Shown: positions 8,341-43,137 of the stretch, one piece after another
Numbering within the stretch: position 1 is the stretch's first letter
How the letters are laid out: each line of letters opens with the position of its first letter
From: an uncultured bacterium
Lineage (GTDB): Bacteria; Oederibacteriota; PGYV01; CAWJRG01
Assembly (NCBI GenBank): GCA_963845185.1
Contig: CAWJRG010000005.1
Span: 352,001 to 416,000, forward strand
Direction: 5' to 3'
Length of the DNA: 64,000 bases
The notes under the pieces: generated by a model
The model's input: only the letters and a program-made list of their open reading frames with translations
Database searches by the model: none
Told to the model about the DNA's origin: nothing
Translations under genes and position numbers: made by a program

Positions 8341-8498
8341 TTGATGATGTTTATTTTGTCAATCTACTGCTAGTCAAATAGTCCTGAGGACTATTTGACG
8401 GTTAGTCTCCGCAAATTATCATATCAAGAACTACCCACAAAATATTACAGCACTCAAGCACCCGGCCAAGTCCCGAGCTTGCTAGGGACGAGAGGTGT
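8341..8498 (-). promoter_or_regulatory. repeated two-hairpin leader element, copy 1 (diverged, with an inserted hairpin)
   Basis: Homologous to 10183-10284, 29440-29535 and 42983-43137; abuts the GGGAGG RBS of the cupin gene. Confidence 0.6.
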
Positions 8499-8502
8499 CT
8501 CT

Positions 8503-10170
8503 TTATTTCTTGCTCTTTTCGTGCATCAGCGTGCATGTAGTCGAGTCAACTATTGTTGCCGGCCCGAAATACTGGATCGGCCCCGGGAACAAATAATCGT
8601 CGTCCATTGCCCATTTTGCCCTGTTTTGCATAAAAACCTTAAACGGCTTGCCGTCCAGGTCAACAAGCGCCTTTTGAATGACAGGCTTGTCCTCGCCTTT
8701 TCTTCTTTCTATATTCATCATCATTGTAAGCGGCGCACCGCCCGCTGTCCATTGCGAGGGTTTCTTTATCAGGTTCTTTACCGATGACATATACCCAGTA
8801 AATCCGTTTAGTATTAAAAGCACAGCATTGTATCCCAGCGCATAGCAGTAATTCGTATCGAAGTTCGTCGGAAAACCGCACCTTCCCTCATATCCGAAGA
8901 AATGTGTTATTGCCGAGAACTTTCCCTTGAATGCGCCTTCCTTTTTCATTTGCCTTAATTTCTTTTCCACCATCTCGACAAGGAGCTTCTCTGTCTCTAT
9001 CTGCGATACCATCACATTGCCGTGCGGGTCCCTGTCGAGAATCAACTGGCTCTCTATATTTTCAGGTATCGACTTCATGAGCTCGGCCAGTCTCGGCTCC
9101 AGTATATTATAAACGTAATTCTTTTTCTCTCGCACCATTTCAAACGCCTTTATTTTCTCCTCGTGCGTTGCCAGCACTTCGTTTAAACTTTTTATAAGTT
9201 CCTTTATTTCAGGTATAAACTCTATCAGCCCTTCGGGCACAAGCGCCACTCCAAAGTTCTTGCCCTTGTCAGACCTTTCCAGTATAACCTCAACTATTGA
9301 ATCTATGACCTGCGCGAGCGTCATCTTTTTTGCAAGCACTTCCTCGCCCACCAGAGCTATGTTCGGCTGGCACTGAAAAGCGACTTCAAGAGTAATGTGC
9401 GAAGCACTCCTGCCCATGAGCCTTATGAAATGCCAGTATTTCTGGGCTGAATTTACATCCCTGCAAATGTTCCCGACAAGTTCCGCGTATATTTTTGTCG
9501 CTGTATCGAACCCGAACGAAGTTTCTATCATATTGTTTTTCAAGTCGCCGTCTATAGTTTTTGGCACGCCTATGACCTGCACTGGCGCCTTTTCTTTCGC
9601 AAAATATTCAGCTAAAAGCGCCGCGTTTGTATTTGAGTCGTCCCCGCCTACCACAACCAGTGCATCTATTTTGTTGTCAAGTAAAGTGCGCTTGCTTTTC
9701 TCAAATTGCTCGGGCGTCTCGATTTTTGTCCTGCCTGATTGTATAAGGTCAAAACCTCCGGTGTTTCTGAATTTATCCATCAAAGCCGCTGTAATTTCCT
9801 TCATTTTTCCGTCTATTATTCCTGACGGCCCGCCCAAAAATCCCATCAGCTTGTTTTTCGGGTTTGCCTTTTTAAGCGCGTCAAAAATTCCTGCTATTAC
9901 GTTATGCCCACCGGCTGCCTGCCCGCCCGATAAAACAACTCCGACTTTTACCGGCTTGCTGTTTAATTTAGGATTCTTGCCTTTTGCAAATACCACAACC
10001 GGCCTGCCGTATATATTCTTGAATATTTTTTCCAGTTTATCGCTGTCGGCTATGCTTTCCGTAGCTGCTCCGGTTTTTGGCTTAATCGAGGAAAACCTGT
10101 TTTTTAAAATTAAAGGCAATTTAGGCTTGTATTTAAGCCTTTGTTTCTGTAACTCTGATAATTTTTCCAT
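8503..10170 (-). CDS. pfp: pyrophosphate-dependent phosphofructokinase (long PPi-PFK)
   Basis: SGGQAAGGHNV, GGDDSNTNAA, PKTIDGD, MGRSASH and FFGYEGR motifs. Confidence 0.95.
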   Translation of the reverse strand: MEKLSELQKQRLKYKPKLPLILKNRFSSIKPKTGAATESIADSDKLEKIFKNIYGRPVVVFAKGKNPKLNSKPVKVGVVLSGGQAAGGHNVIAGIFDALKKANPKNKLMGFLGGPSGIIDGKMKEITAALMDKFRNTGGFDLIQSGRTKIETPEQFEKSKRTLLDNKIDALVVVGGDDSNTNAALLAEYFAKEKAPVQVIGVPKTIDGDLKNNMIETSFGFDTATKIYAELVGNICRDVNSAQKYWHFIRLMGRSASHITLEVAFQCQPNIALVGEEVLAKKMTLAQVIDSIVEVILERSDKGKNFGVALVPEGLIEFIPEIKELIKSLNEVLATHEEKIKAFEMVREKKNYVYNILEPRLAELMKSIPENIESQLILDRDPHGNVMVSQIETEKLLVEMVEKKLRQMKKEGAFKGKFSAITHFFGYEGRCGFPTNFDTNYCYALGYNAVLLILNGFTGYMSSVKNLIKKPSQWTAGGAPLTMMMNIERRKGEDKPVIQKALVDLDGKPFKVFMQNRAKWAMDDDYLFPGPIQYFGPATIVDSTTCTLMHEKSKK

Positions 10171-10182
10171 GGTTTCTCCTTA

Positions 10183-10284
10183 TGATTTCGTTTACTTTGC
10201 CAAGCCGTCAACAGGCGCAGGCAAAGTATTACGAAATCTTATACCCGCTCAAGTCCGAGGCCAATAGCCGAGGACAAGTGGTAT
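10183..10284 (-). promoter_or_regulatory. repeated two-hairpin leader element, copy 2
   Basis: gatttcgtaatactttgcc...ggcaaagtaaacgaaatc immediately before the TAAGGAG RBS of pfp. Confidence 0.7.
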
Positions 10285-10395
10285 TGTTTATTTTAAGAAT
10301 GCATATCCTCAATCCTGTTATGCCTCGCTATTATATAAAAACCAATAGAAATTTCAATTGTTTTTTGGTTGTTGATATCGCTTCCCAAAGCATTG

Positions 10396-10581
10396 GTAGA
10401 GGAGCGCTTGAGCTCCAGTTTGCATAAGTGTATGTGTTTGTCTTTCACTCCCCATTAACAAGGGGGAGTAGAAGGGGGTTTACAGTAGTGAAAATGTAAG
10501 CAAAGAAGAGCGGCAACAAGCCACCGCTCTACGCAGTATTTTGCAACAGTCCTGCGTTGTGGCAGTCAAGCCTGCCGCTAC
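10396..10581. repeat. cluster of REP-like palindromes (GTAG/CTAC-ended and ccccnt..aagggg type)
   Basis: gtagaggagcgcttgagctcc; actccccattaacaagggggagt; agagcggc...ccgctctac; gtggcag...ctgccgctac. Confidence 0.5.
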
Positions 10582-10711
10582 TTATGGCTATCTTCTATCA
10601 TATAGAAAATATTCGCTTTTTACCCCGAAACTTTTCGAAAAAATAGTTGTCTAAAATTATGATAATAAGGTTAATTGTGTTATTAAATTTAATTAAATTA
10701 GTTTAAATTAT

Positions 10712-10740
10712 TTGACAAATGGCATTTGTGACTGTATAAT
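10712..10740 (+). promoter_or_regulatory. consensus sigma70 promoter of the GH8 gene
   Basis: TTGACA-17 bp-TATAAT with an AT-rich upstream region. Confidence 0.8.
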
Positions 10741-10769
10741 TTATATAAATTAGTAAACACATTTTCACA

Positions 10770-13700
10770 TTGAGAAAACGTGAAAAGAGGTCTGAGTCTT
10801 TTATGCAAATGAAAAAAGTAATAGTCCTAACTCTATCTATATTATTATTGGCATTTTCATATTCATTTGCCGTACCCCCTGTCGTAAATATTAATTCAAA
10901 CTATCCTCTTGGTACCGGGCCTTCTATTCCATTCCCTCAGTTTCTTAATTATACTCCTTCTACACTCACTTTCACTGTTTATTCCCTTGCAGACCCGGCT
11001 CATACTCAAACAGGTTTGGCGCTTCACCAGCCTGACGGCGTGTCCCTCGCTGAAATGGAGCAATGGCTAAGGGATGCCTGGCAGATTCATGCGAATGAAT
11101 TTAATACTAACGGCACCGTAACATATCAATTAGTAGGCGGTGGTAATGCAACAATAACCCTTATCCAGGACAGTTCAACCCCATATTGTTCCGAGGGCCA
11201 TGGATATGCATTGCTTGGTGCAGCTCTTATGGCTGATAAGCAGACCTTTGACGGGCTATGGTTTTATCTTAATGAAAATGATTATTTTAACGACACCAAA
11301 GTATACTCTACCGGCACAGTTTATAATGCGGCATATCAAGCCGGCATACATGCTCCTGCCTGGGCAGGCGCTGGTTCTGATTCAGCAACTGATGGTGATG
11401 ATGATATTGCCATGGCTGCCCTGCTGGCCTGGAAGCAATGGGGCGACAACACAGGCTACTATGCGCCGGGCGGCACTGGCGCAAATAATTCAAACGGCCG
11501 GCCTGCGATACAGTATAAGCAGATGGCTCTTGATATGATGCGGTTTATGGTAGCAAAGTTTCTTGATTCCAATAATAAATATACCTGCGGCGATATCGGC
11601 TATGACGGATATGTGAAAGGCGGCAATACATGGAATGAAGTAACGAACTGGTATACGCCAGGGGATCCTTTGGAGCATGGCGGACCCCAGGCAAATTCAT
11701 ATTTTGACTATTGCGACCCAGCCTATTATCGGTGCTTTGGTGCAACACTCCAGGCGCAAGGCGACCCAGTATGGAACTACAGCCAGTATGCACGCGGAGC
11801 TGCTGCCTCAAACTGGGCCATGGGCCAGCTCGCAGCAAACGCTGCATATAAAAATACTACAGCCGGTACTTATACAATAGCCGGAACAACAGCTACTTTC
11901 GGGAATTCAAACCTTGGCGGCGAAGATTTCCGTACAGTATGGAGGGAGGGCGTGGATTACCTGTGGAACGGTAATCCTACGACGTCATGGGACCCTACAA
12001 ACCATGTGACAATTACAGCCTCAAATACTTACGAATATAATGCGGGAGTAAAAGAAGCTCAGTTCTCTGAAAATCCCCAGCAATACGGCACAGGTATTGC
12101 ATGCGAGAGCTATGGTTCATCGCCGGTAACTTACCAGGGAATTGCATCTTTAAATGCGTATAATCTCGACGGCACATTATACGCCGACAACTGGCATATT
12201 AATTATGAAGTTGGAGCGCCTGCAGCTGCTGCCACAATCGCCCAAAATTTTGACGAGATGGGTGAAATATTCAGGGAAGTTACTTGCCTCTGGGATACGG
12301 TCGGCGGAAGTGATAATTATCTCAATTCTGTACCACACTATTTCCATGGTTTCTTCAGGGAAGTTTATTTGCTTCTCTTAACCGGAAACTTGATAAATCC
12401 ATGCAACTGGATTGTCCAGCCAAACATGAAAATTTTTAAGGCAATTGACAAAACCTATGCTTTCCCGAACGACCTTATAACCTTCTGGATTAATTACCGC
12501 AACTACGGTTCTGTAAACGCAGCCGGTGTAACAATTATTGACACCCTCCCAAATGCATTTACTTTTGTTTCTGCTACAGGAGGCGGTACATACAACTCGG
12601 CAAATAACACGGTCACATGGAGCATAGGCACGGTCAATGGGCTTGCAAACCAGAACTATGCCGCGACAGAAGGCGGAGTAACATGTATAGTCGAGGTCCT
12701 GCCAAGCGCAGCGCAGGGCAGGTACTGCAACTTCGCTGATATTGCCTGCACAAACGGCCCGGGCTCCACTACGTCGCCTTTCCCAAATACAGCGCCGTCA
12801 AACCCTGCAAATATAAACGGTACTGTGATGACGCGCAACTGCGTGGACATTGTGGCAGGAGCACTGACATTATCAAAAACAGCAAACCCAACTACTATAA
12901 ATACAGGAAGTGCCGTCACTTACACTCTAAATTATTGCGACTCGTCAAAGGCAGGATGGTTAAACGGCGGCAGGTCGGGCGTGGACTTTTCTTTCGGGCT
13001 AAAGACCCTGCCCGGCGCAACTTCGACCGACCTCGACTTTTACCTGCGGGCAAACCATGAGGCAGCCACGCCCATGATTGACTGGGGCAATTACAGGATA
13101 TCATATTTTATTAATTCTCCGTATCACGGCGCACAATGGACCTTTAGCCAGTATAATGCCGAGGGTTATAATTCTGCTGGGACCATAATAACAACCGAGG
13201 ATTTTGCCGCATGCTCCCCTACTGCCTGCACTGACGCCAGCGGCAAATACTGGAACCAACGCCTTATGATACAGCCCGGCCATGGGTCAGGCGAGCCTAC
13301 ACACTTACTGTTCTGGAAAGCAGGGACTTCTGCTGCCCTGCATTTTGGCACAGAGACTTACGCATTTTTTATGGAAAGCGATCTTACAGCCGGTTATGCT
13401 GCCCAGGACTGGACGGACGACTGGTCACAGCAGCAAAGCTGGGATGTTTGCTCGCAGAGTGACCCGCTTTACCCGATAAGCCCAGACTGGACAGCAGGCG
13501 ACGGTACCTCAGTGCCTGTCACAAAAATAAACAAAGACGCCTGCCAGACCTCGGCATACCAGGTGACAAACGTACTTATTGAGGAATGGGACGGCTATTG
13601 CTGGCGCAGGGTTTTCGGCAACGGCCCCATGCCAGGAAGAGAAGTAGATAATGTTGTTTTGACAGATTCCCTGCCAACTTGTCTTGATTTCGGCGGATTT

Positions 13701-16700
13701 ATAACAACAAGCCCTGCAGGCACATGGACATCAAGCACAAGGACACTTCAATGGAACATAGGCACCATGCAGGTAAGCCAGTGCGGCCAGGTACAGTACT
13801 ATGCGCTTGCCAATAACACATGCTGCACCACGGTAAAAAATCTGGCTTTTATTTCCGGAGACAAGGAAATGTCTGTTTCTTCCACAGCTTCGGTACTTGT
13901 CGTCTGCGGGACTGTAATTCCAACCCGGACGAACACAGCTGGTTCAACTCCTACATTTACTGCCACGTCAACTTACACAAGGACACCTACAGCTACATAC
14001 TCGTCCACTTATACAAATACGCCTACGCCTACTTCCACGCCTACAAACACGGCTACACGGACTTATACGCCAACAAATTCGCCAACGCCTACTTCTACAG
14101 TCACGCCTTCTCCTACTTATACAATGACTCCTACACCTACATTAACCCGTACAGCTACATATACTTACACTTATACAATCACATTGACCGATACGCCAAC
14201 TCCTACTCCAACTGTAACAATTACAACTTCCATGACATATACCAGGACATATACTCCTACATATACTCAAACATACACGCCCACTGCAACATCTACTTAT
14301 ACAAACACAATGACTCCTACACCTACATTAACCCGCACAGTGACATACACTTACACAAGTACAATCACTCTCACTGATACGCCAACCTCTACTCCAACAC
14401 TAACAATTACGACTTCCATGACATTCACCAGGACATATACTCCTACCTATACACAAACAGACACGCCCACTGCGACATCTACTTATACAAATACAATGAC
14501 TCCTACACCTACATTAACCCGTACAGCTACATATACTTACACTTATACAATCACATTGACCGATACGCCAAGTTCGACTCCAACATTTACAATTACAACG
14601 TCCATGACATTCACAAGGACATATACTCCTACCTATACTCAAACATATACACCCACTGCAACACCTACTTACACAAACACTCTGTCGCCGACATCCTCTT
14701 ACACACAAACAGTAACATATACTTACACATATACAATCACGCTGACTGATACGCCGACTCCTACTCCAACATCAACAATTACTACTTCCATGACCTTCAC
14801 CAGGACATATACGCCTACCTACACACAGTCAGACACACCAACCGCAACGCCTACCTACACAAACACTCTGTCGCCGACATCTTCTTATACACGTACAGCC
14901 ACATATACTTACACATATACAATCACGCTGACTGATACGCCGACAATCACAAGCACAATAACCCCCACATATACTATAACCATGACTTATACTGTGGTAA
15001 TAATATCAGCAACCATAACCCCAACATATACGATAACTCCTACAGACACGATAACTAAAACATCAACGCCATCGTCAACCAACACAGTTACATATACTTA
15101 CACATATACAATCACGCTGACTGATACACAGACTCCGACTCCAACATCAACAATCACGACTTCCATGACATTTACCAGGACATATACGCCTACCTACACA
15201 CAGACAGACACGCCAACAGCTACACCTACATACACAAACACTTTATCGCCGACATCATCTTACACGCGCACAGTAACATATACTTATACATCTACGATCA
15301 CACTAACTGATACGCCTACATTCACAAGCACATCAACGCCGACCTATACCATAACAATGACTTATACCGTGGTAATAGTATCAGCGACAATAACCCCAAC
15401 ATACACGGCAACTCCGACAGACACGATAACCAAAACATCGACGCCATCTTTAACCAGCACAGTGACATATACTTATACATATACAATTACTCTGACAGAT
15501 ACGCCTACCTTCAGCCCGACACTGACAAATACAGTTTCAGCGACATACACGCGGACAAGTACGCCTACTTACACCAACACTGCCACATACACTTATACCG
15601 ATACAGTCACTCTGACAAGCACAAGCACGCCGACTTACACAATAACAATGACTTATACTGTGGTAATAATATCAGCCACATTTACGCCGACATACACGAT
15701 AACTCCTACAGACACAATAACCATGACGTCAACGCCGACATTGACGCATACAATCACATATACTTATACATATACAGCAACGCTGACTGATACACAAACG
15801 CCGACTTACACAATAACAATGACATTTACCCAGGTAATATTATCAGCGACATTTACGCCGACTTACACAATAACACCTACAGACACGCCGACCTATACAC
15901 ACACCATGACATCTACGCCGACATTTACTCCCACATCAACATATACTTACACATATACCATAACGCTGACGTCCACATATACCATAACACCGACATACAC
16001 CACGGTCATAGTATCAGCTACATTTACTCCCACATATACTGACAGCCCGACCCTGACAGCCACGCCGACATATACCAACACAAAAACAGCCACATTGACT
16101 TATACCGGAACTGTTACCCTCACATATACATATACAGTCACAATCACCGATACTTTCACTGACACGTTTACAGCAACGCCCACATATACGGATTCGCCGA
16201 TAGATACTCTCACTTCCACGCCGACCTACAGCCCGACCATGACTTCCACTTACACTTTCACAAATACACCTACAGACACTGACACGCGCACTATAACAAT
16301 GACATTTACCTCGACATCCACGCCTACGGTCACCCGCACATATACAGACACGCTGTCACCGACTTCAACTTACACTCATACAGTTACATATACCTACACA
16401 TACACGGTTACTGAAACATTGACGCGCACTTCATCCCCGACCATAACAGCCACATACACCATTACGGCTACGCCCAATATCAACACGCCTGTCACGCCTT
16501 CTGTTTCGCTATCTGTTAGCGGCGACAACCCGAGGCTCGGCGCCAAAATTACCTATACCCTTGTCATTGACAATACTTCAAACACAACTATCAGCAACAT
16601 TTCTATATGGGACACGCTTCCGGGAGAGCTTTCTTTGGTGTCTATCAGCCTGCCGGCTGTCCCGACTCCTACCATATCAGGCAATTACATCGCCTGGAAC

Positions 16701-19363: not shown

Positions 19364-19449
19364 GCCGGAGTGGTGAAATGGCAGACACAGGGGACTCAAA
19401 ATCCCCCGCTAGCAATAGCATGTCGGTTCAAGTCCGACCTCCGGCACCA
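19364..19449 (+). tRNA. tRNA-Leu (CAA)
   Basis: Cloverleaf GCCGGAG/CTCCGGC, anticodon loop CTCAAAA, long variable arm, GTTCAAGT, encoded CCA; TTGACA/TATAAT upstream. Confidence 0.95.
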
Positions 19450-24029: not shown

Positions 24030-24106
24030 CGGGGTGTAGCGCAGCGGTTTAGCGCACCTGCCTTGGGAGCAGGGGGCCGGTGGTTCAAGTCCACTCACCC
24101 CGACCA
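24030..24106 (+). tRNA. tRNA-Pro (TGG)
   Basis: CGGGGTG/CACCCCG acceptor stem, CCTGC-CTTGGGA-GCAGG anticodon arm, CCA end. Confidence 0.95.
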
Positions 24107-24361: not shown

Positions 24362-24438
24362 GGTGGGCGTAGCTCAGCGGTTAGAGCACTAGGCTGTGGC
24401 CCTAGGGGCCGCGGGTTCAAATCCCGTCGCCCACCCCA
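24362..24438 (+). tRNA. tRNA-His (GTG)
   Basis: G-1, GTGGGCG/CGCCCAC stem, CTAGG-CTGTGGC-CCTAG anticodon arm, CCA. Confidence 0.95.
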
Positions 24439-28376: not shown

Positions 28377-29426
28377 TCACCACAGGTAATCAAGCGGGTC
28401 TTCCACCTTTCCGTTTTTGAAAATTGAAAAGTGCAGGTGCGGCCCCGTGGACTTCCCGGTGCTTCCGGTTTTTGCTATTAATTTTCCCGCTAAAACCTTT
28501 TGGCCCGGCTTTACAAAAATCTGGCTCAAATGTGCGTAAAGGGTCTGGTACCCGTTGGCGTGCTTTATAGTCACACATTTCCCATATCCACCCTGCCAGC
28601 ACGCGGATATGACGATTCCGTCTGCAGCTGCGCCGACCCAAGTCCCGACTTTTGCCCTTATATCTACTCCATTATGGTATTTGGATACGCCTCTTATCAA
28701 GGGATCCTTTCTCATGCCTTTTAAAGAAGTATACTCTCCGGAAAGCGGCGAACGGAACATCCTTCTTTTTTCAAAAAGTTTTGCCATGTCGCCGTTTAAA
28801 AAAACCGGTTTTGATTCAGGCACAAAAATTATATCCCCTGGCTTTAGCTTATCTCCCTCTATATTATTGTAATATTTGATGCGCTCAGCCGGTATCTTGT
28901 AAATTTCAGCTATCTGGCTGAGTTTTTGTTCGTCCCTGACCTCGTGGATAATGCCTTTTTTTGACAATATAATAATCTGTTGGTTTAATCTGGCTTTTAA
29001 ATCCTTAAGTTCAGGGTTGGCGCCCGCAATAGTGTCTATATTGGTTCCGAAATCTCTTGCCACGCCCCATAAATTTTCTCCAAGCTTTACTTTATAAAGT
29101 GTAAAATTCACATTTTTTATATTTAACTTTTTAAGTAAATATACGTATGCCATTTCTTTGTCGCGCTCGGATACCTCCGTATATGTGCTCTTAAAAAAGT
29201 CATCGGGTTTCCAGCCTTTGTATTTAAGGATATCCGCTATTTTGCCCTGCCTGAATGAGACGTTTGCCATGGATTCATTCGTTGTTAAAACAAGCGTTAA
29301 AACAATTCCAATCAGCACAAGCGCAGCTGCGCTTGAGATTATGACTACATTTTTTAGCCGGTATTTTTCCAGGTATTCCCCGGCAATCAACACTGTTTTT
29401 TGTAATCTTTCCAGAATTGCTTCCAT
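28377..29426 (-). CDS. LysM plus M23 metallopeptidase
   Basis: Two LysM-like repeats; HNGVD, YAHL and TGPHLHF motifs; N-terminal TM segment. Confidence 0.92.
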   Translation of the reverse strand: MEAILERLQKTVLIAGEYLEKYRLKNVVIISSAAALVLIGIVLTLVLTTNESMANVSFRQGKIADILKYKGWKPDDFFKSTYTEVSERDKEMAYVYLLKKLNIKNVNFTLYKVKLGENLWGVARDFGTNIDTIAGANPELKDLKARLNQQIIILSKKGIIHEVRDEQKLSQIAEIYKIPAERIKYYNNIEGDKLKPGDIIFVPESKPVFLNGDMAKLFEKRRMFRSPLSGEYTSLKGMRKDPLIRGVSKYHNGVDIRAKVGTWVGAAADGIVISACWQGGYGKCVTIKHANGYQTLYAHLSQIFVKPGQKVLAGKLIAKTGSTGKSTGPHLHFSIFKNGKVEDPLDYLW

Positions 29427-29439
29427 TAACAAGTCTCCC

Positions 29440-29535
29440 TTGATATCGTTTGTTTTGTCAAGCTTACTAGCGCTGACAAAACATTACGAGATCAAGCACC
29501 CGCTCCAGTGCTGATTTTATCAGCACAAGTGGTGC
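29440..29535 (-). promoter_or_regulatory. repeated two-hairpin leader element, copy 3
   Basis: gatctcgtaatgttttgtca...tgacaaaacaaacgatatc followed by the AAGGGAG RBS. Confidence 0.7.
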
Positions 29536-29665
29536 CTGATAGCGTTTATTTGCCAAGCCTGCAATAATCCTGTTAAATACAATATAAACCAATAATATCA
29601 AAAAATCAATATTATTTTGTCAGAGTTTCCCCTTTTATTATTGCTCTGCTTTTATAACCGATTTT

Positions 29666-35389: not shown

Positions 35390-35944
35390 TTAAACTTTAT
35401 CCTTTATCATGTCGTATAAATAAACAAGAAACCCTGCCGTAAAAGGCACAGTTATCACTTCGCCGACAAAAAATAATTTCACCCCTATAAGATTTACAAG
35501 AATAAGGCACAGCATTATTGTAAAATGTGCTGTAAAACCGTTTTTCATGACAACATTATAACTCAACCTTAACGATTCTCCAACCCCTTTTCCTGAATAA
35601 GCAAGGTAAAAAGGCGCATATATCCATACCGTCATTACAAACAAACCGGGTACTATTAAAATCATTCCTAGCAAAGCAGTGAAAAATATAATCAGTCCTT
35701 GTGCCGATAAAAGCAATATTTCTGTCCTGTAAAAAAACAGCGATTCAAAGGTTTTGTTAACGGAAACTTTCTCGTTCCTTTGTATTTTTAAAAATATCAG
35801 CCCCAAACCCGTAAATAAAAACGGTATTAGCAGGCCAAGCGTCAATACGCTCAGGATAATTGCCACGAGGGATGCTCCAAATATTGTCGCCGGCTCCCTT
35901 TTTATCGCAGTAATTGTTTCTTTTATAGCCTTATTTATTTCCAC
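35390..35944 (-). CDS. hypothetical integral membrane protein
   Basis: Four hydrophobic segments; overlaps the ribF stop. Confidence 0.7.
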   Translation of the reverse strand: MEINKAIKETITAIKREPATIFGASLVAIILSVLTLGLLIPFLFTGLGLIFLKIQRNEKVSVNKTFESLFFYRTEILLLSAQGLIIFFTALLGMILIVPGLFVMTVWIYAPFYLAYSGKGVGESLRLSYNVVMKNGFTAHFTIMLCLILVNLIGVKLFFVGEVITVPFTAGFLVYLYDMIKDKV

Positions 35945-36870: not shown

Positions 36871-36875
36871 AGCGT

Positions 36876-37835
36876 TTATTTGAGCTGCCTTCTAACCTCT
36901 GCCAGCAGGAGTTTTTCAGCTTTCTTAATGGGGGTTTTTATCACGCAACCCGCTGCATGCTTGTGTCCGCCGCCTCCGAATTTGCGTGCGATTTTGTTTA
37001 CATCCGCGCCGTTTCTTGCCCTCAGGCTTGCTTTTGTAACGTTTTTTGCAGTTTCCTTAAAAAGGATTGCAACTTCCACTTCTTTTATGGAACGTATTGA
37101 ATTTATAAAATTATCGGTATCACTCTCGGCCGCGCCTGTTTCCCTGAACATTTTTTTCGTCAGGCGGCTCCATCCGATTTTATTCTGGATTTTTAAGCCT
37201 GCCAGCATTTTCATCAGCAGGGCCGTGCTGCTTTTCGTTGTTGAGTAAACTTCAAACGCGATTGCCTCCGGGTCGGCTCCGGCGCGTAAAAGCTCTGCCG
37301 CTATTATATGCACTCCCGGTGTTGTGTTTGAATACCTGAAAGAACCTGTATCGGTAATTATGGCAGTGTACAGGCACGAAGCTACGTCTTTGTCTATTTT
37401 CCATCCAAGCTTTTTCATGATTTCAAAAATTTGTACCCCGACTGCGGCCGCCCTGCTGTCAACTATATTCATATCCCCATACATGTCGTTGTCGGGATGA
37501 TGGTCAATATTTATGATATATTTTGCCTGTTTTTCGTAGTCTATTATACCGCCGTTTCTTGCCAGGTCCGGACACTCGAGAATTATAGCCACGTCGTAAC
37601 TGCCCTCGACTTTCTTTATATTTTTGATTTTATTACTTTTGGGAAGGAATTGATAAATTGCCGGCATCGAATCCCTGTTTATAAAATCAACCCTCTTTTT
37701 CATTTTTAACAGCTTATTAATAAGGGCAAGGCCCGTGCCTATGCCGTCGCCATCTGGGTTCAGATGTGTTGTTATTAATATTTTTTTGGCGCTCTTTATT
37801 ATTTTTCCCAGCAGTTTTACCTTGTTGTCTGTCAT
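36876..37835 (-). CDS. nrnA: DHH/DHHA1 phosphoesterase (NrnA-like)
   Basis: HLNPDGD, IDHH, TDTGSF and GGGGH motifs. Confidence 0.9.
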   Translation of the reverse strand: MTDNKVKLLGKIIKSAKKILITTHLNPDGDGIGTGLALINKLLKMKKRVDFINRDSMPAIYQFLPKSNKIKNIKKVEGSYDVAIILECPDLARNGGIIDYEKQAKYIINIDHHPDNDMYGDMNIVDSRAAAVGVQIFEIMKKLGWKIDKDVASCLYTAIITDTGSFRYSNTTPGVHIIAAELLRAGADPEAIAFEVYSTTKSSTALLMKMLAGLKIQNKIGWSRLTKKMFRETGAAESDTDNFINSIRSIKEVEVAILFKETAKNVTKASLRARNGADVNKIARKFGGGGHKHAAGCVIKTPIKKAEKLLLAEVRRQLK

Positions 37836-38188
37836 TTTCCCTGCCTCTCGTCTTGAATAGTTTTTAACAATCGCATTATTCTTTCCCGCTCTTCCATGGT
37901 ATCATCGATTTTAAATATGATTTCAGGCGTATACCGCAGTTTTATTACACCACCCACTTCTTTTCTTATGAACCCGGCCGCGCTTTTCAATCCTTCCATG
38001 TTTTTTTCTTTTGCTTCCGGGTCGCCCATGATACTCACATAAACGTGCGCAATGCGCAGGTCTTTTGTCAGGCTCACGTGCGTTACACTTACAAAAGTTA
38101 TTCTGGGGTCTTTTAATTCGCGCAGGATTAACGTGCTTATTTCTTTTTTTATTGCGCTTTCCACCCGCTGTTTCCTTATATTATTCAT
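37832..38188 (-). CDS. rbfA: ribosome-binding factor A
   Basis: KDPR, DL..A.VY and LRYTPE motifs; operon position. Confidence 0.95.
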   Translation of the reverse strand: MNNIRKQRVESAIKKEISTLILRELKDPRITFVSVTHVSLTKDLRIAHVYVSIMGDPEAKEKNMEGLKSAAGFIRKEVGGVIKLRYTPEIIFKIDDTMEERERIMRLLKTIQDERQGK

Positions 38189-38251
38189 AGTTGTTTCCTT
38201 GGCTGTCAAAATAATTATCTGCAGAAACTACCCGGCGGGCCGTCTCTGCTT

Positions 38252-38536
38252 TTACATTATTTCAAACTCATCGTTCAGTATTTCAAATCCGCTTTTGTTT
38301 TCCTCGATATGGTCTATTATTTTGTCAAAGGTGCTGTTAATCAGCCGCGCGTCCTCGCTTATGCATGCCATTGCGATGACGCTTCGCTGCCATTTATCCT
38401 GATATTCGGCTTCAATTATTGATATATTGAATCGTTTCCTTAACTTATCTTTTAGCTGCTGTATTATGAACCTTTTTTGCTTTAAGGAATGTGTCTCGTG
38501 TAAAAAAAGCTCGATTTTAAGTATCCCGACCCTCAT
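38252..38536 (-). CDS. DUF503 (YlxP-like) protein
   Basis: SLKQKR...FN.S..E...QD.WQR; lies between infB and rbfA. Confidence 0.9.
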   Translation of the reverse strand: MRVGILKIELFLHETHSLKQKRFIIQQLKDKLRKRFNISIIEAEYQDKWQRSVIAMACISEDARLINSTFDKIIDHIEENKSGFEILNDEFEIM

Positions 38537-40659
38537 AGTTTTTTGACTTTTTGCCTCTCCTCATAAAAAACGATGACATCACCTTCCTTTGGTTCCCTGT
38601 ATCCGTCCACAATAACTCCGCACTCATAGCCTTCCTTGACCTCTTTTACGCTGTCTTTAAATCTCCTTAGGGATAAAACGTTGCCTTTTAATATTTCGTA
38701 ACCTCCCCTGTATACTGCTGCGACCGAATCATTATATGCATTACCGCTCTTTATATAGCTGCCTGCAATAAATTTATCCTCGCTTACCATCTTAAATATT
38801 TGCCTTACCTCGGCTTCGCCTATCTTCACTTGCTCATATTCGGGCTCCAGCAGTCCTTCCATCGCGGCTTTAATTGCGTCAACTACCTCATATATTATAT
38901 GATATATCTTTATCTCAACATCTTCCTTCTTGGCCAGTTCTTTGGCTGCGGAGTTTATAGCTACAAAAAACCCTATAATAACTGCATTTGAAGCGTCGGC
39001 AAGCAGTACATCGCTCTCGGTTATATCGCCGACATCCTTGTGTATTATCTGTACGTTTATTTCACTTTCTGCCGACAGCTTGCTTATAGAGTCGGACAGC
39101 GCGCCTACTGAGCCCTGCCCGTCGCCCTTAATGATGAGGAAAAGCTTTTTCTCTGCACCCATTTTTATTTTTGCATGCAGGTCCTCGAGAGTTATTTTCT
39201 TTTTCTTTCTTTCCTCGGACATTCTCCTCAGTTCCTCGCTGCGGCGCTCGGATATTTGCCTTACTTCCTTTTCGCTTTCCATTACCCTGAACTTGTCGCC
39301 TGCGTTTGGCACTTCGTCAAAGCCCAGTACCTCCACGGGCATTACCGCCTTGGCTTCTTTCAGCCTGTTTCCTTTATCGTCAATTAAAGCCTTTACTTTG
39401 CCGAATGTGAAATTTGTTATAAAAGGATCTCCTATCATTAGCGTCCCTTTTTGTATAAGCACGGTGCCTACAGGCCCCCTGCCCTTGTCTAGTTTGCCCT
39501 CTATTATTACCCCCATTGCCTTCCTGTTCGGGTTTGTCTTTAATTCAAGCATCTCAGCTTCGAGCAGTATCTTGTCGAGCAGCTCGTCAATGCCTATTTT
39601 CTTTTTTGCCGAAATCTGTACAAACTGGGTTTTCCCGCCCCACTCCTCGGAAATCAAATTGTATTTTGTCAGCTCCTGCTTTACCCTGTCCGGCTGCGCG
39701 CCATCCTTGTCTATTTTATTTATGGCGACTATTATCGGGGCTCCCGCTGCTTTTGCGTGGTCTATTGCCTCAACCGTCTGTGGCATTACGCCGTCATCCG
39801 CCGCCACTATTAAAATTACTATGTCGGTTGCCTGCGCTCCCCTGGCGCGCATTGCCGTAAATGCCTCGTGGCCCGGCGTATCAATAAATACAATGTCTCC
39901 TTTTTTTGTCTGCACCCTGTACGCGCCGATTTTTTGGGTAATGCCGCCTCTTTCCTGCGAAACAATATCAGATTGTCTCACGGCATCAAGCAGAGAAGTC
40001 TTGCCATGATCGACGTGTCCCATTATCGTGACTATCGGAGCCCTTGGTTTCAGGTCCTCGGGCTTGTCTTCTTCCTCTTCAAATACCGAATCGCCGTATA
40101 TATCCTTGAATTTTACTTCTTTGCCAAATTCTTCAGCCACAAGCTGTGTCGCCTCTTCGGAAAGCGTCTGGTTTATGGATGCCAAAACTCCCATGGACAT
40201 TAATTTTTTTATAAGTTCTGTTGATTTTATCTCAAATCTTTGGGCAAGCTCGCCGACTGTTATTGTCCGGTTTACTTCAATGACTTCTTTTTCAGCCGGC
40301 TTTACCGCCGGTTCCGCAGCTTGCACAGGCGCAGCCGCCGTCTCAGCCTGGCTGGTTTTGATTTCCTCCGGTTTCGGCTGTACCGCAACTTCTTGCTTTA
40401 TTTCCTCTTTCACTTCCGGTTCCTGCTTTTTAAGGTGTTTTTCCTCTTTGCCCAGGACAGCCTGCGCCTTTTCTGTTTTTGCCCTGGCCGGCTCTTCTTT
40501 TTTCCCTTTTTGTGGCGCCAGCCTTTTTTCGACAAAATCAATTAATTCGTCCGGAATGGCGCTCATGTGGCTTTTAACTTCCACGCCTTTTTCCAGTAAA
40601 ATATTGATTATTTCCTTGCTCTCTATGTCGTATTTTTTCGCGATTTCGTGTATTCTCAT
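38533..40659 (-). CDS. infB: translation initiation factor IF-2
   Basis: GHVDHGKT, DTPGHEAF and NKID motifs. Confidence 0.98.
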   Translation of the reverse strand: MRIHEIAKKYDIESKEIINILLEKGVEVKSHMSAIPDELIDFVEKRLAPQKGKKEEPARAKTEKAQAVLGKEEKHLKKQEPEVKEEIKQEVAVQPKPEEIKTSQAETAAAPVQAAEPAVKPAEKEVIEVNRTITVGELAQRFEIKSTELIKKLMSMGVLASINQTLSEEATQLVAEEFGKEVKFKDIYGDSVFEEEEDKPEDLKPRAPIVTIMGHVDHGKTSLLDAVRQSDIVSQERGGITQKIGAYRVQTKKGDIVFIDTPGHEAFTAMRARGAQATDIVILIVAADDGVMPQTVEAIDHAKAAGAPIIVAINKIDKDGAQPDRVKQELTKYNLISEEWGGKTQFVQISAKKKIGIDELLDKILLEAEMLELKTNPNRKAMGVIIEGKLDKGRGPVGTVLIQKGTLMIGDPFITNFTFGKVKALIDDKGNRLKEAKAVMPVEVLGFDEVPNAGDKFRVMESEKEVRQISERRSEELRRMSEERKKKKITLEDLHAKIKMGAEKKLFLIIKGDGQGSVGALSDSISKLSAESEINVQIIHKDVGDITESDVLLADASNAVIIGFFVAINSAAKELAKKEDVEIKIYHIIYEVVDAIKAAMEGLLEPEYEQVKIGEAEVRQIFKMVSEDKFIAGSYIKSGNAYNDSVAAVYRGGYEILKGNVLSLRRFKDSVKEVKEGYECGVIVDGYREPKEGDVIVFYEERQKVKKL

Positions 40660-41948
40660 TCGGTTTTCTCGATTTTCCCGGTTTTACCGCTTTTCTCTAT
40701 AAACTCGTTGGCTTTCCCCTTGAGCTTCTTTATTTCTTCGTCGTCTGCTCCGATTATCTCCTTAAGGATATTGTCTTCGGCAGCCGCAAAATCCTTCAGG
40801 TTCTTTATCCCAGCTTCCTTTATTTTCCTAAGAACCTTCACCGGTATGTCTGTGTTTAACTTAAAAAGGTCATACTCTACCTGTTCCTCTATGCCTTTCT
40901 TCATCTGGACAATTTTTTCCTCGGTAAATTCCGTCGCCCTCAGTACGGACACTTTCCATTTGGTAATCTTTGCCACAAGCCTCATATTTATGCCGCCCTT
41001 GCCTATCACCTGCGAAAACTGTTCGTCAGGTACTGCAATGACCGCGTATTTATTCACTTCGTCGACATAAATATTTTTTATTGAAATGGGCGCAATCGCG
41101 CTCGCCAGGTATTTTTTAATATCGTCGCTGTAAAGGACAACATCAACCTTTTCCCCCTGCAGTTCCCTTATGATTGTCTGTATCCTGCTGCCCTTTACGC
41201 CGATGCAGGCACCCACCGGGTCTATATGCGGGTCGTTTGAGGTTACCACAACCTTGCTTTTTATGCCCGGTTCCCTCGCGACGTATTTTATCTCCACTAT
41301 TCCCTGGTCCACCTCGGTAACTTCAGTAGCAAATATTTTTTTGATAAAATTCGGGTGTGTCCTCGACAGTTCAAGCACGGCCCCGTCCCTGCTCCTGGTT
41401 ACCGAAAGTATATAAGCTTTTATCCTCTGCCCGATTTTATATTCTTCCTTTTCCACCTGTTCTTTTTGCCTCAAAATGCCTTCCACTACCCCCAGGTCGA
41501 TTATTAAATTCCCGTTTTCTATGCTGTGCACTGCGCCCGTTACTATCTCGCCTTCTTTTTTAGCGTACTCGAGGTAAACCTGCTCTTTCTCAACTTCCCT
41601 TATTTTCTGGGTTATTACCTGTTTTGTTGTCTGGGCCGCTATCCTGCCGAACTCCTTGGGATAAAAAAGCACTTCTATTTCCTCGCCGAGCTGCGCTTCG
41701 GGCTTTATTGTTTTGGCTTCTTCCAAAGAGATTTCCGTATAATCGTTTTCGGGCTTTTCAACAACTTTCTTTATCCAGTAAAACTTGATTTCGTTTTCCT
41801 GCGCGTCGACCCTGATATTGGGCTTTATGCCGTACACCTTTTTGGCCGCGGAAGTTATGCCGCGTTCAAACGCCTTTACAAGCTCGCCCTTGTCTATATT
41901 TTTCAGCCTTTCAATCTGTTGGAACATCTCTGTAATTTCATTTGACAT
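40656..41948 (-). CDS. nusA: transcription termination factor NusA
   Basis: FGRIAAQT, SRTHP, DPVGACIG..GSR; S1 and KH domains. Confidence 0.96.
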   Translation of the reverse strand: MSNEITEMFQQIERLKNIDKGELVKAFERGITSAAKKVYGIKPNIRVDAQENEIKFYWIKKVVEKPENDYTEISLEEAKTIKPEAQLGEEIEVLFYPKEFGRIAAQTTKQVITQKIREVEKEQVYLEYAKKEGEIVTGAVHSIENGNLIIDLGVVEGILRQKEQVEKEEYKIGQRIKAYILSVTRSRDGAVLELSRTHPNFIKKIFATEVTEVDQGIVEIKYVAREPGIKSKVVVTSNDPHIDPVGACIGVKGSRIQTIIRELQGEKVDVVLYSDDIKKYLASAIAPISIKNIYVDEVNKYAVIAVPDEQFSQVIGKGGINMRLVAKITKWKVSVLRATEFTEEKIVQMKKGIEEQVEYDLFKLNTDIPVKVLRKIKEAGIKNLKDFAAAEDNILKEIIGADDEEIKKLKGKANEFIEKSGKTGKIEKTE

Positions 41949-41953
41949 TTTAA

Positions 41954-42442
41954 TCAACCTCTCTTGTGCTTCAGGTCGTCTTCGGCTGAGTCAAGATTTG
42001 CCTTTTTGATGTCGCTGAAGCTTATTTCTGTGTTTTTGCCTTCCTGTTCTATGATAACTTTGTCATCCGTGACTTCCATGATATGTCCGGAAAAAACCGC
42101 CTGGTTGTCTACCAGCTGATGCAGGACTATTTTCACTCTTTCTCCTTTGAACCGCAGGAAGTCTTCTCTCTTTTTAAGCGGCCTGTCTGTCCCGGGCGAA
42201 GACACTTCCAGGAAATACCTCCCGGGGATAACGTCATTTACGTCCAGATCCAGGGCGATCTGCTCGCTTAAATTTGCGCAATCGTCAATACTTACGCTTC
42301 CTTTCTGCTTATCAATGACCACTTTTACGTAATAATTGCCTGCCTTGTTAACCTCGATTTCGGCAATTTCCATGAAATTGTCTTTTACTATAGGTTCTGC
42401 CACTTCTTTAATCTTTTCCTTTAAAATATCAAATGCTGTCAT
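41954..42442 (-). CDS. rimP: ribosome maturation factor RimP
   Basis: IDDC and LEVSSPG.DRPL motifs. Confidence 0.95.
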   Translation of the reverse strand: MTAFDILKEKIKEVAEPIVKDNFMEIAEIEVNKAGNYYVKVVIDKQKGSVSIDDCANLSEQIALDLDVNDVIPGRYFLEVSSPGTDRPLKKREDFLRFKGERVKIVLHQLVDNQAVFSGHIMEVTDDKVIIEQEGKNTEISFSDIKKANLDSAEDDLKHKRG

Positions 42443-42462
42443 ATTGCACCCGTTTAAAAATC

Positions 42463-42491
42463 AAAAAGTGGGGTTTAATCTTGCCCCACTT
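42463..42491 (-). terminator. rimP-leader attenuator hairpin
   Basis: aagtggggc...ccccactttttg just upstream of rimP, the usual position of the rimP leader terminator. Confidence 0.7.
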
Positions 42492-42717
42492 CGCGTGTAA
42501 AAGGCTCATGTCTCTAAAACTTCATCTTCAGTCAAAATAATACTATCACAAACAAGCCTGTTTTTCAAGCTTGTTTTTCAATAGGGTTTTATCCTGTAGA
42601 ACGCCTTTGCAAAATCAGATATTCTATATTCATGATTTTACAGGCAAAAATATGGAATTTTCCAAAAATATTGGAAAATCCTGTAACTAATTGACCCAAT
42701 AAAAATTTTTCCCTGCT

Positions 42718-42969
42718 TTAAGCAGTGACCTTATAAACAACATCACCTTTTCTTACGTGGTCTTTTACCTTTATGCCGACTGAGTCTCCTTTTTTGGCGT
42801 TCTGCATTGGTTTGTGGTCAATCTGCATTGAGTCAACTGTCTGGGTGATATCAGTGGTATGGCCTTTTATGTGTATTGTATCACCGACTGCAAAATCGCC
42901 TTCTACCTTGAAAGCAGCCACGCCCACTTTTGCAAAAAAATCATCTACCTCGCCGATTTTAACTTCCAT
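42718..42969 (-). CDS. small EF-Tu domain II-like (U32 peptidase C-terminal-like) protein
   Basis: IG.V..FF.K.GVA, GD.I.I.GHTTD..Q.V.SMQI and GD.VGIK motifs. Confidence 0.8.
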   Translation of the reverse strand: MEVKIGEVDDFFAKVGVAAFKVEGDFAVGDTIHIKGHTTDITQTVDSMQIDHKPMQNAKKGDSVGIKVKDHVRKGDVVYKVTA

Positions 42970-42982
42970 TTTCTCACCTCCC

Positions 42983-43137
42983 TTGATTTCGTTTACTTTG
43001 CCAATCCGTCAACAGGAGCAGGCAAAGTATTACGAAATCATGCACCCGTTCCAGTTCGAGGTCATTAGGCCGAGAACAAGTGGTGCTATCTTAGTACCCG
43101 CTCCAGTCCGAGGCTTTAGCCAGGGACAAGCGGTGCT
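42983..43137 (-). promoter_or_regulatory. repeated two-hairpin leader element, copy 4 (first hairpin tandemly duplicated)
   Basis: Hairpins at 43093-43137, 43042-43086 and 42984-43040, then the GGGAGGTG RBS. Confidence 0.7.

Follow-up and report, generated by a model that had tools for sequence, protein, structure and literature searches.

Small repeats and their landing sites

REP/BIME sequences (REPINs), which are mobilised by REP-associated tyrosine transposases (RAYTs), are 20–40 nt long, GC-rich and usually located 3' of genes. Bacterial class C group II introns insert in an orientation-specific manner just behind intrinsic terminators, a safe haven. In the IS608 model, the active strand is expected on the lagging-strand template. 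Palindrome-associated transposable elements (PATEs), which are non-autonomous and derive from IS200/IS605 elements, were defined as having no terminal inverted repeats, palindromes near their termini, no target duplications and too short a length for a transposase (PMC3119063), and integration is described as occurring downstream of a transposon-adjacent motif (PMC10055086). Neisseria REP2, with about 26 copies of 120–150 bp, is described as carrying a promoter, a ribosome-binding site (RBS) and an ATG (PMC3184786); the Borrelia repeats IR-A/IR-B are similar to REP2 and are grouped with it in this comparison.

How does an element that stands directly before the Shine–Dalgarno sequence (SD) of four genes of an uncultured bacterium compare with these systems? 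We read the four leaders, with a probability of about 0.7, as copies of a non-autonomous, lineage-specific insertion element of ~105 nt that lands before a pre-existing SD. What is new here is the comparison of sites with and without the element. Like PATEs, it lacks terminal inverted repeats (set against each other as inverted repeats, its two consensus ends coincide at just 3 of 12), has a palindrome near each end and makes no target duplication; it is likewise too short to encode a transposase and keeps a fixed orientation beside a short flanking motif. Unlike PATEs, it has no cognate Y1 transposase in the genome and its ends are at none of 20 Y1 loci of relatives, its hairpin B begins at the junction with no recognisable guide segment, the implied transposon-adjacent motif would be the SD complement, and the strand bias seems not to fit the lagging-strand rule. 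No report of an SD complement serving as a transposon-adjacent motif was found in the literature. With REP2 as described it shares the absence of terminal inverted repeats, two internal stem-loops, a dispersed distribution and the 5'-leader position (PMC3184786); compared by description, it differs in that the target supplies RBS and ATG, in having no promoter at a constant distance and in numbering more than 100 copies. REP/BIME resemble it as high-copy extragenic hairpins with compensatory stem changes and mosaic modules, often behind terminators, whereas the element is a fixed pair of different hairpins docking at the SD, in a genome with no Y1/RAYT gene. A MITE was also considered and rejected, terminal inverted repeats and target-site duplication both being absent.

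The element in the window

The whole stretch of DNA analysed, here called the window, is 64,000 nt long. A covariance model built from three of its copies returned four matches, all on the minus strand and in the same sense as the gene downstream. The preliminary description had placed four copies at about these positions; they are there, and the genome as a whole holds far more than four. It had also seen them adjoin the SD, and each copy indeed stops 0–3 nt before an SD-like AAGGAG or AAGGGAGG, with the start codon next. Copy 1 (8333–8503, minus strand, 43.6 bits) is a long variant located between the pfp stop codon and the cupin SD, in which hairpin A is followed by a hairpin B with about 60 extra nt in its loop; nhmmer recovers only its two halves. 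This loop contains a 21-nt palindrome seen in the sequence, AAATAGTCC-N3-GGACTATTT (8376–8396, no strand assigned), which occurs 26 times in the genome, 20 of them within 250 nt of an element match, and is a mark of the long-B subfamily. At the cupin SD AAGGGAGG and its ATG (8327–8342, minus strand, read from the sequence), the AAG pairs with a CUU of the linker and the GGAGG lies outside the hairpin.

The other copies, also minus-strand covariance-model matches, are copy 2 in the pfp 5' leader (10174–10289, 131.6 bits), copy 3 in the leader of a LysM + M23 peptidase gene (29432–29540, 110.9 bits) and copy 4 in the leader of an 83-aa EF-Tu-domain-2-like protein (42975–43091, 126.1 bits). Pfam bears out the earlier naming of three of the genes downstream: the cupin (ORF 8057–8329; Cupin_3, E=7.8e-25), pfp (ORF 8503–10170; PFK, E=6.5e-38) and LysM-M23 (28377–29426; Peptidase_M23, E=5.2e-35; LysM, E=7.6e-16). 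The EF-Tu-domain-like call for the fourth (42718–42969) corresponds to a sub-threshold match only (GTP_EFTU_D2, 28.1 bits, under the cut-off of 30.3). By Pfam, the four genes are functionally unrelated. Directly 5' of copy 4 lies a solitary extra hairpin A (43093–43140, minus strand; nhmmer model positions 2–50, E=5.4e-5). Its upstream flank closes with ..GATATCAAG, much as a hairpin B does at its 3' end. We read it as a probable remnant of an older unit, pushed upstream.

Both promoter-like sites named earlier are consensus matches, and are to be taken as such: TTGAAA-16-TATAAT (10330–10357, minus strand), ~40 nt upstream of copy 2, agrees at 11 of 12 consensus positions, and TTGATT-17-TATATT (29581–29609, minus strand), upstream of copy 3, at 9 of 12. 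Across this genome there is no promoter at a fixed distance from the element; –10-like boxes are scattered in position. Rfam has no matching family, and the preliminary description, too, had not recognised a known riboswitch: at gathering scores the whole window gave three tRNAs only, and at E up to 10 the region 8200–10500 gave a single chance match, to a lncRNA model.

Fold and conservation

The covariation first noticed between the window copies is real. Across 23 sequences taken from the window, the genome and relatives, pairing is kept in 91.8% of cells; shuffled sequences give 70.8% and slid partners 34–43%. Of 34 base pairs, 26 are changed on both sides. The element is built of an imperfect hairpin near each end, A at its first bases and B at its last. 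Hairpin B has an A-rich 2x1 internal loop bordered by two invariant pairs, a G-C (67 of 68 parsed copies) and a U-A (68 of 68), the base of hairpin A carries a CNCU / ANCGG region, and about half of the copies (53/106, by a rough pattern) contain a 2x2 UC/UC internal loop whose adjoining pairs covary. The core is 90–100% conserved and the stems are variable. Even the closest dispersed copies share no more than about 93% of their sequence, which gives no sign of a recent burst and counts against the insertion-element reading.

Which strand folds? On the mRNA strand, G.U and A.C pairs number 27 vs 122 in raw counts and ~23 vs 42 without positions that seem unpaired. Folding stability is higher for the antisense strand in 78 of 106 copies with RNA parameters; DNA parameters divide the copies 56 to 46. 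Together with the ambiguous wobble counts, these strand tests do not settle the matter. The SD itself is not sequestered: GGAG lies outside hairpin B, only the preceding AAG pairs, and the mean unpaired probability of the SD is 0.52 with the native element vs 0.32 with shuffled ones (native higher in 52 of 65 copies).

A high-copy family with a preferred orientation

The four window copies are ordinary members of a high-copy family restricted to one order. In the 3.5-Mb genome nhmmer gave 224 matches, 177 of them at E<1e-3 (114 full length), and these 177 precede unrelated genes; A-only units number 36 and B-only units 24. Within the order the family has matches in 11 of 24 genomes, and in none of 75 other genomes of the phylum. 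Random orientation across the genome, which by the preliminary description would have spoken against its reading, is not what is seen: orientation is strongly gene-sense, the gene downstream being co-oriented for 98 of 115 full-length matches. Copies also match the regional gene majority in 98/115 cases, and the effects of gene and region are inseparable because orientation follows both in 88/115. Docking was scored where an SD-like motif came next, together with a start codon from which 50 aa or more could be read in frame. This held for 76 of 115 full copies and, among the B-end fragments, for 16 of 24, compared with 238 of 5000 random positions and 7 of 115 copies read antisense from the 5' end; no SD plus start codon follows the other 39 of the 115.

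Units also occur in tandem. An array at G000:C9:916420-917181 consists of six 100-nt units and a seventh, long-B unit, and no SD and start codon come after this run. Junctions within arrays read ..ATCAAG/TACC.. (slashes mark junctions), without GGAG. Of 115 copies, 33 have in their 5' flank a remnant that looks like the 3' half of a hairpin B; in the 3' flank, 11 of the 115 do. Such arrays and decayed 5'-side remnants are what would be expected if repeated landings at one SD stacked units head to tail.

Filled and empty sites

Does the element bring its SD, or was the SD there before? Two filled/empty pairs and one gene with relatives bear on this question. The target in the first pair is a second repeat family, X, which is empty at five loci (..CTCCGG/GGAGGGAGC..) and filled at three aligned loci (..CTCCGG/TACC..ATCAAG/GGAGGGAGC..); its GGAGG is internal to X and is neither the gene's SD nor a start site. 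The second pair consists of two paralogous leaders with a common promoter-like stretch and a common GGAGG-N9-ATG. One has ..ATAGAA, then the element, then GGAGG; its counterpart reads ..ATAGAAAGGAGG. In both pairs an insert of ~105 nt directly precedes a GGAGG that was already in place, and the junctions of neither show a target duplication of more than 1 nt. For pfp, one filled and two empty metagenome relatives were compared: L189 (94% amino acid identity) has the hairpin-B end before its SD, and in L190 (94%) and L191 (87%) the covariance model, run with filters off, found no element in the available upstream flank. The stretch from SD to start aligns across filled and empty relatives. The element is an insertion, in fixed orientation and without duplication beyond 1 nt, and GGAGG and start codon pre-exist it. 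Because both are present in empty alleles, the SD is a property of the target and not something delivered; the element brings only a few bases (..ATCAAG) ahead of it. An 'empty' site could equally stem from precise loss of the element.

Docking at terminators in relatives

Other relatives offer a second landing site. There, the same end of the element docks on the A-run of pre-existing terminators, antisense to genes. In the relative G014, 16 copies were examined; for 14 of them the genes on both sides lie on the strand opposite to the element, and most of the tails shown enter an A-run directly, with a GC-rich hairpin next. Terminators at the different loci are unrelated in sequence. One orthologous locus was aligned: G014 has the element there, G020, G023 and G019 lack it, and all four have the A-run and the terminator. 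The convergent gene ends no more than about 60 nt away from this terminator, which is therefore that gene's own.

Could the element in these relatives be an independent small RNA gene, preceded by a –10 box and closed by a terminator, from which the leader copies of this genome derive? A TATTATATT-like motif lies directly 5' of the element in several copies of G014, G023 and G019, and an A-run, then a GC-rich hairpin with a T-run, follows directly 3' in most examined copies. But the terminator is already present without the element in three relatives at the aligned locus, terminators differ between loci, a conserved –35 box was not seen, and the AT-rich motif can be read as a –10 box on both strands. 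We consider a small RNA gene very unlikely.

Regulatory RNA or portable ribosome-binding site?

Two covarying hairpins with conserved internal loops directly before an SD, with no matching known Rfam family, are also what a riboswitch or other ligand-sensing cis-regulatory RNA common to the four genes would present, and the preliminary description had proposed a cis-regulatory RNA defining a regulon. The 177 significant matches before unrelated genes do not fit this, nor does the insertion polymorphism, with presence varying between near-identical pfp genes. The element also sits at an internal, non-start GGAGG, and copies in relatives lie antisense beside terminators. For a riboswitch, moreover, the SD is not sequestered (apart from the AAG before it, and it is more open than with a shuffled element) and a terminator/anti-terminator alternative is absent. 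The element is neither a riboswitch nor the mark of a four-gene regulon, and ligand sensing has a negligible probability. Regulation could also have been gained by co-option: a dedicated protein or another trans factor would bind the invariant unpaired motifs by the SD and control translation or decay of some 100 genes, in addition to mobility, with the gene-less tandem arrays perhaps acting as sponges, as in Csr/Rsm systems. Conserved sequence coincides exactly with the unpaired positions (the A-rich loop, CNCU / ANCGG, UC/UC), hairpin B ends 0–3 nt from the SD, and the seven-unit run with no SD and start codon following is suggestive, if no more. That the core is conserved next to stems that vary implies that selection is still at work, as it would not be on a dead parasite, and this counts against the transposon reading. 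Against co-option speak the difference in presence between pfp genes 94% identical in protein, the occurrence at a GGAGG that is no SD, the unrelated functions of the genes downstream in the window, the lack of G.U enrichment over A.C on the mRNA strand, and the antisense copies behind terminators in one relative family, which leave no common RNA context. On balance we judge such a module unlikely.

The other half of the earlier proposal, a mobile repeat with a portable SD, fares unevenly: the repeat is an insertion element, but GGAGG and start codon pre-exist in the two pairs and at pfp. A portable leader delivering its own ribosome-binding site would resemble REP2, described as a two-stem-loop repeat immediately upstream of genes (PMC3184786). 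In its favour, subfamilies defined by the base of hairpin B track SD variants (..CGAAATC with AAGGGAGG, ..CGGACTC with TAAGGAG), and a few copies, such as G000:C9:907364, retain AAGGG without a following gene. Yet GGAGG, spacer and ATG are present in the empty allele of both pairs, the pfp SD-to-start stretch aligns between filled and empty relatives, array junctions lack GGAG and this genome has no fixed-distance promoter. For the pairs examined, delivery of the SD is already contradicted, and as a general account it is highly improbable.

How might the element move?

Under the insertion-element reading, integration would be orientation-specific and would set the hairpin-B end of the element next to a short purine motif; this motif would be the 5' edge of GGAGG in this genome and one relative and the terminator A-run in another relative family. 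Both landing sites may be safe havens that spare genes. Before an SD, the element would be transcribed along with the gene, within the 5' leader; folding on itself, it would leave the SD free and so be tolerated, and it might even insulate or stabilise the leader. By analogy with the IS200/IS605-derived PATEs, it is possible, if doubtful, that it moves as single-stranded hairpin DNA served in trans by an HUH-type enzyme, in which case the role of transposon-adjacent motif would fall to the pyrimidines of the other strand, CCTCC or a T-run. Neither Y1_Tnp (PF01797) nor the TnpB zinc-ribbon domain (PF07282) has a match in this 99.4%-complete genome. Y1_Tnp is found in 15 of 24 genomes of the order, and its presence does not track the element; at the 20 Y1 loci of relatives, no element match reached 30 bits, the best having 20. 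If genes follow replication, the strand with CCTCC would mostly be the leading-strand template (given the 98/115 agreement with the regional majority). This would not fit the lagging-strand rule of IS608 and would count against PATE-like movement.

Might mobility and function be combined in another way? A new kind of SD-homing transposon, a hairpin-guided DNA element that recognises GGAGG itself with an enzyme other than the known Y1 transposases, could have supplied the hundred or so leader copies that were then co-opted, with a dedicated factor reading the invariant UC/UC and A-rich loops and the gene-less arrays serving as decoys. We think this decidedly unlikely; if true, it would be a post-transcriptional regulon built by transposition. 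The docking at terminators recalls the class C group II introns, as an analogy of landing site only, since the element, at ~105 nt, has no intron domains and no Rfam match. Of the six reverse-transcriptase copies in the genome, one has an element match within 4 kb.

A genome-wide family of hairpin elements

The preliminary description had proposed a shared two-hairpin unit at four places in the window, and reading of the sequence bears this out: all four copies are on the minus strand, oriented like the gene that each precedes. In the mRNA, hairpin A comes 5' and hairpin B 3' in a repeat of about 105 nt. A covariance model built from copies 2-4 and scanned over the window matches copy 2 (10174-10289, minus strand, 131.6 bits), copy 4 (42975-43091, minus, 126.1 bits), copy 3 (29432-29540, minus, 110.9 bits) and the long variant, copy 1 (8333-8503, minus, 43.6 bits). 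Searching with nhmmer adds a solitary hairpin A ahead of copy 4 (43093-43140, minus). In copy 1 the loop of hairpin B is enlarged by ~60 nt and contains a 21-nt palindrome (8376-8396), which occurs 26 times in the genome, 20 of them at most 250 nt from an element match. The genes following copies 1-4 are indeed those of a cupin, a phosphofructokinase (pfp), a LysM-M23 peptidase and a small EF-Tu-domain-2-like protein, the domain match of the last being sub-threshold. The proposed promoters are also there, as promoter-like sites ~40 nt upstream of copies 2 and 3, and copy 1 is intercistronic because its start coincides with the pfp stop codon. The element matches no Rfam family, whether at gathering scores or with E allowed up to 10. 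The window also holds three tRNA genes on the plus strand (19364-19446, 24030-24103 and 24363-24435).

Do these four genes form a regulon, as had been offered as one of two readings? They do not. The element is a genome-wide family: an nhmmer profile of three copies finds 224 matches in the 3.5-Mb assembly, 177 of them at E<1e-3, of which 114 are full length. The significant partial matches comprise 36 with the A part only and 24 with the B part only, and many of these correspond to the halves of long-variant copies. Identity between dispersed copies reaches ~93% at most, which gives no sign of a fresh burst. In a crude ORF-based gene call, the downstream gene is co-oriented with 98/115 full-length copies and the upstream gene, 0 to several hundred nt away, with 93/115. 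Orientation agrees with both the gene and the regional majority in 88/115 copies, so that gene direction and replication direction are inseparable. Docking at a Shine-Dalgarno sequence (SD) was scored where an SD-like motif had, 7-16 nt further on, a start codon that opens at least 50 codons. This arrangement follows 76 of the 115 full copies and 16 of the 24 B-end fragments. For comparison, it occurs at 238 of 5000 random positions, after 3 of 36 A-only matches and, when copies are read antisense from their 5' end, at 7 of 115. The copies lacking it include array-internal units, degraded sites and a subfamily with a TTTTCAA-repeat tail. A subfamily of six copies has AAGTTTTCAATTTTCAAT-like repeats after the end of hairpin B instead of an SD (in the source genome, G000, at C9:676578, C5:35399, C9:671474, C1:208376, C9:656519 and C5:32832).

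The Shine-Dalgarno sequence as landing site

Is the SD brought in by the element, or was it there beforehand? A mobile repeat delivering a portable SD had been suggested; the mobility stands, as filled and empty sites exist, and the cargo falls, as GGAGG is already present in the empty alleles. The SD is the landing site. Searching the genome with both flanks of every copy, for places where the flanks are adjacent, gave two independent filled/empty pairs. The first is carried by family X, a second, unrelated repeat without an Rfam match and with about ten copies by its core motif. Its empty form reads ..CTCCGG/GGAGGGAGC.. at five loci, L146-L150 (G000:C9:28480-28600, C10:331625-331752, C10:852890-853000, C1:5300-5450 and C10:877604-877690; the slash marks the junction). 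The filled form reads ..CTCCGG/TACC...ATCAAG/GGAGGGAGC.. at three aligned loci; additional filled copies of X exist, and filled versions include L151 and L152. The second pair consists of paralogous leaders that have in common an upstream stretch holding a TGTATAAT box and an identical GGAGG-N9-ATG; the empty leader reads ..ATAGAA/AGGAGG, and in the filled one the element sits between ..ATAGAA and GGAGG. The insert of either pair, ~105 nt long, begins with (G)TACC and ends in ..CAAG or ..CTTG, and target duplication of more than 1 nt is absent. The GGAGG of the first pair is internal to X, with the SD of the gene further downstream, which argues for a site picked by its sequence rather than one retained through translational selection. 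Family X itself measures ~110 nt and combines a conserved CGCGAAAATCCC core with a GC hairpin and an internal GGGGAGGGAGC; it is found in leaders and once ahead of a tRNA.

The pfp leader offers a view of the same polymorphism between close relatives, since copy 2 varies among metagenome contigs encoding similar pfp proteins. At the beginning of contig L189 (94% protein identity) stands the 3' end of a hairpin B, then TTAGGAG and the ATG, and the start of copy 1 is found directly after its pfp stop codon. Contig L190 (94%) has no element in the available flank upstream of pfp, by the covariance model with filters off. The leader there is ..AAAGGATAAATC-ATG, and over the first 30 coding bases the gene does not differ from pfp in the window. 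In contig L191 (87%) pfp likewise lacks the element by the same search; ahead of its cupin gene there is apparently no more than a remnant of the 3' half of hairpin B, and the next gene is preceded by a full copy (95.3 bits). The stretch from SD to start codon of pfp can be aligned across filled and empty forms.

Fold, covariation and strand

Hairpin A has a conserved base, in which ACC-N-CUUGU pairs with ACU-K-GA-N-CGGGU; its distal stem is variable and contains, in roughly half of the copies, a 2x2 UC/UC internal loop whose adjoining pairs covary. In hairpin B the lower stem varies, the A-rich 2x1 internal loop above it is fixed, and an upper stem then carries a loop that varies as well. Because the linker CUU pairs with the AAG immediately 5' of GGAG, GGAG itself is left outside the hairpin. 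The covariation reported for the window copies is upheld in a set of 23 sequences, drawn from the window, the genome and relatives: pairing is found in 91.8% of cells, against 70.8% in shuffles (0/500 attain the observed value) and 34-43% with slid partners, and 26 of 34 pairs show changes on both sides. Anchored counts in this genome give AT 33 and TA 19 at one position of the lower stem of B, and TA 30 and GC 29 at the next. An alifold consensus from a MAFFT alignment of 108 copies is poor because the variable stems misalign, and the anchored counts and a model-based alignment took its place.

Which strand is folded? Counts of G.U versus A.C show no enrichment of G.U pairs on the mRNA strand. 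With RNA parameters the antisense strand is the more stable in 78/106 copies, an asymmetry mostly due to hairpin B that is gone under DNA parameters (56 vs 46). An anti-SD-like CCTC occurs in hairpin A of 39/66 SD-docked copies and 14/36 others (Fisher p=0.06); as a docking guide it is only a lead.

Possible consequences for the leaders

Landing in gene sense between the SD and either a promoter or the gene upstream would make the element a segment of the leader. The distance from promoter to element shows no peak in this genome. In folds of the native sequence the SD is unpaired with a mean probability of 0.52, a value that drops to 0.32 when the element is shuffled, and the SD is more open with the native element in 52 of 65 copies (p about 1e-8); the fold thus appears self-contained and spares the ribosome-binding site (RBS). 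If a further copy landed at an occupied SD, it would come to lie between GGAGG and the unit already in place. Repeated landings would produce head-to-tail arrays with ..ATCAAG/TACC.. junctions and would leave older, decaying units on the 5' side. Such junctions are seen, and remnants of the 3' half of B lie in 33/115 of the 5' flanks versus 11/115 of the 3' flanks; the lone hairpin A before copy 4 fits this stacking picture. The array at G000:C9:916420-917181 comprises six units of exactly 100 nt and a seventh, long-B unit, with a TGTGATAAT box ahead and no SD and start codon after it.

Could the host have put these leaders to use? A core conserved at 90-100% beside stems that are free but compensated points to selection still acting; its object could be the transposition competence of master copies or some role for the host. 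That the unpaired motifs are conserved allows for a co-opted leader bound by some factor, a reading that nevertheless seems quite improbable. For copies in related genomes, a second alternative is that they are stand-alone sRNA genes, and several of them have an AT-rich, TATTATATT-like motif immediately on their 5' side, which speaks in its favour. The odds of this are low, as the terminators that would end such genes pre-exist at an orthologous locus: the element is present there in the relative G014 and absent from G020, G023 and G019, whereas the A-run and terminator are found in all four. It follows that these are terminators of the convergent gene, beside which the element has inserted.

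Distribution and landing sites in relatives

With 40 candidates per genome scored, a broader model finds matches in 11/99 genomes of the phylum, 11/24 in the same order and 0/75 elsewhere. There are 1-6 per genome, with the exceptions of G014 (17) and the window's own genome (>100). Records labelled 'candidate division FCPU426 bacterium' and 'uncultured Spirochaetia bacterium' carry true matches. A loose AT-rich pattern scan matched at least 95 stretches; searching 80 loci from it with the model yielded L062 and L125 at 49-54 bits, and the remaining five matches among those 80, at 18-27 bits, we take as chance.

In G014, G020, G023, G019 and G003, the end of hairpin B mostly runs into an A-run, a GC-rich hairpin and a T-run in the copies examined, and for 14 of the 16 copies examined in G014 the genes on either side are both encoded on the opposite strand. 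G001 has two SD-docked copies like those of the window's genome. A copy in the fabG-acpP interval, antisense to the fab operon, is common to four genomes (L007, L009, L006 and L021, in G019, G017, G021 and G009, respectively). The sole family-wide constant is a purine run at the end of hairpin B, either GGAGG or an A-run plus G/C, while the RNA context varies; viewed from the opposite strand, the docking motif is a pyrimidine run 5' of the element. At L025 (G021:C62) and L008/L015 (G003:C117), a tandem pair of B-only hairpins stands right after the stop codon of a gene ending in a cysteine-rich motif, and the last ~70 coding bases of this gene are repeated after the hairpins.

Movement and the missing enzyme

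How does the element move? Palindrome-associated transposable elements (PATEs), non-autonomous elements of IS200/IS605 type, are described (PMC3119063) as having palindromes near their termini, neither terminal inverted repeats nor target duplications, and too little length for a transposase; the architecture found here agrees with that description. IS200/IS605 elements reintegrate downstream of a transposon-adjacent motif and have subterminal palindromes on one strand (PMC10055086), and the element is compatible with the adjacent-motif rule. Searches of this 99.4%-complete genome gave 0 matches to the transposase domain Y1_Tnp (PF01797) and to the TnpB domain (PF07282). Y1_Tnp occurs in 15/24 genomes of the order, its presence does not track the element, and the element was not found at 20 Y1 loci (6 + 14) of relatives. 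With a PATE-like architecture but no cognate enzyme, the element is filed as PATE-like in its working and not as a proven member. IS91 (PF04986) also gave 0 matches, uninformative since the control was likewise silent in every genome.

Two other mobile units were considered as partners. Reverse transcriptase (RVT_1, 142 bits each) is encoded in six copies of a 1.93-kb unit, more than 99.3% identical (G000:C9:700695, C9:811636, C9:845477, C10:383780, C10:832145 and C11:62007), which we take to be an active group II intron. An IS110-type transposase has seven matches, five of them within a near-identical 1.29-kb unit. Both were rejected, an element match lying at most 4 kb away in only 1/6 and 1/7 cases.

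Relation to known repeats and significance

Among the small hairpin-ended repeats, the element represents an undescribed variant whose target is unusual as well as specific. Such repeats are common, but a limited full-text literature search found no report of a hairpin repeat landing at the 5' edge of an SD motif. The closest case in the literature consulted is REP2, which is described as carrying its own RBS (PMC3184786), unlike the element here.

If the targeting is real, the parasite has settled on a short site that most genes have in front of them and that can be hit without harm, and about a hundred 5' leaders of one genome have been rewritten. Engineered insulator leaders are built to keep the RBS accessible, and the element would be a natural structured insert doing the same. 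The switch of the family between SD and terminator, as two safe havens, would likewise be a tractable system for the evolution of target choice in hairpin-ended elements. For annotators there is a caution: covariation beside an SD is insufficient for calling a riboswitch.

Upstream of copy 4 lie two GC-clamped palindromes, GGGGTAATTC..GAATTACCCC (window 43219-43240) and GGGCGATTCA..GAATCGCCC (43264-43283). They recur between pfp and the cupin gene in the metagenome relative L191 (2920-2975), number 6 and 11 in the genome, counting both strands, and are probably another small repeat family.
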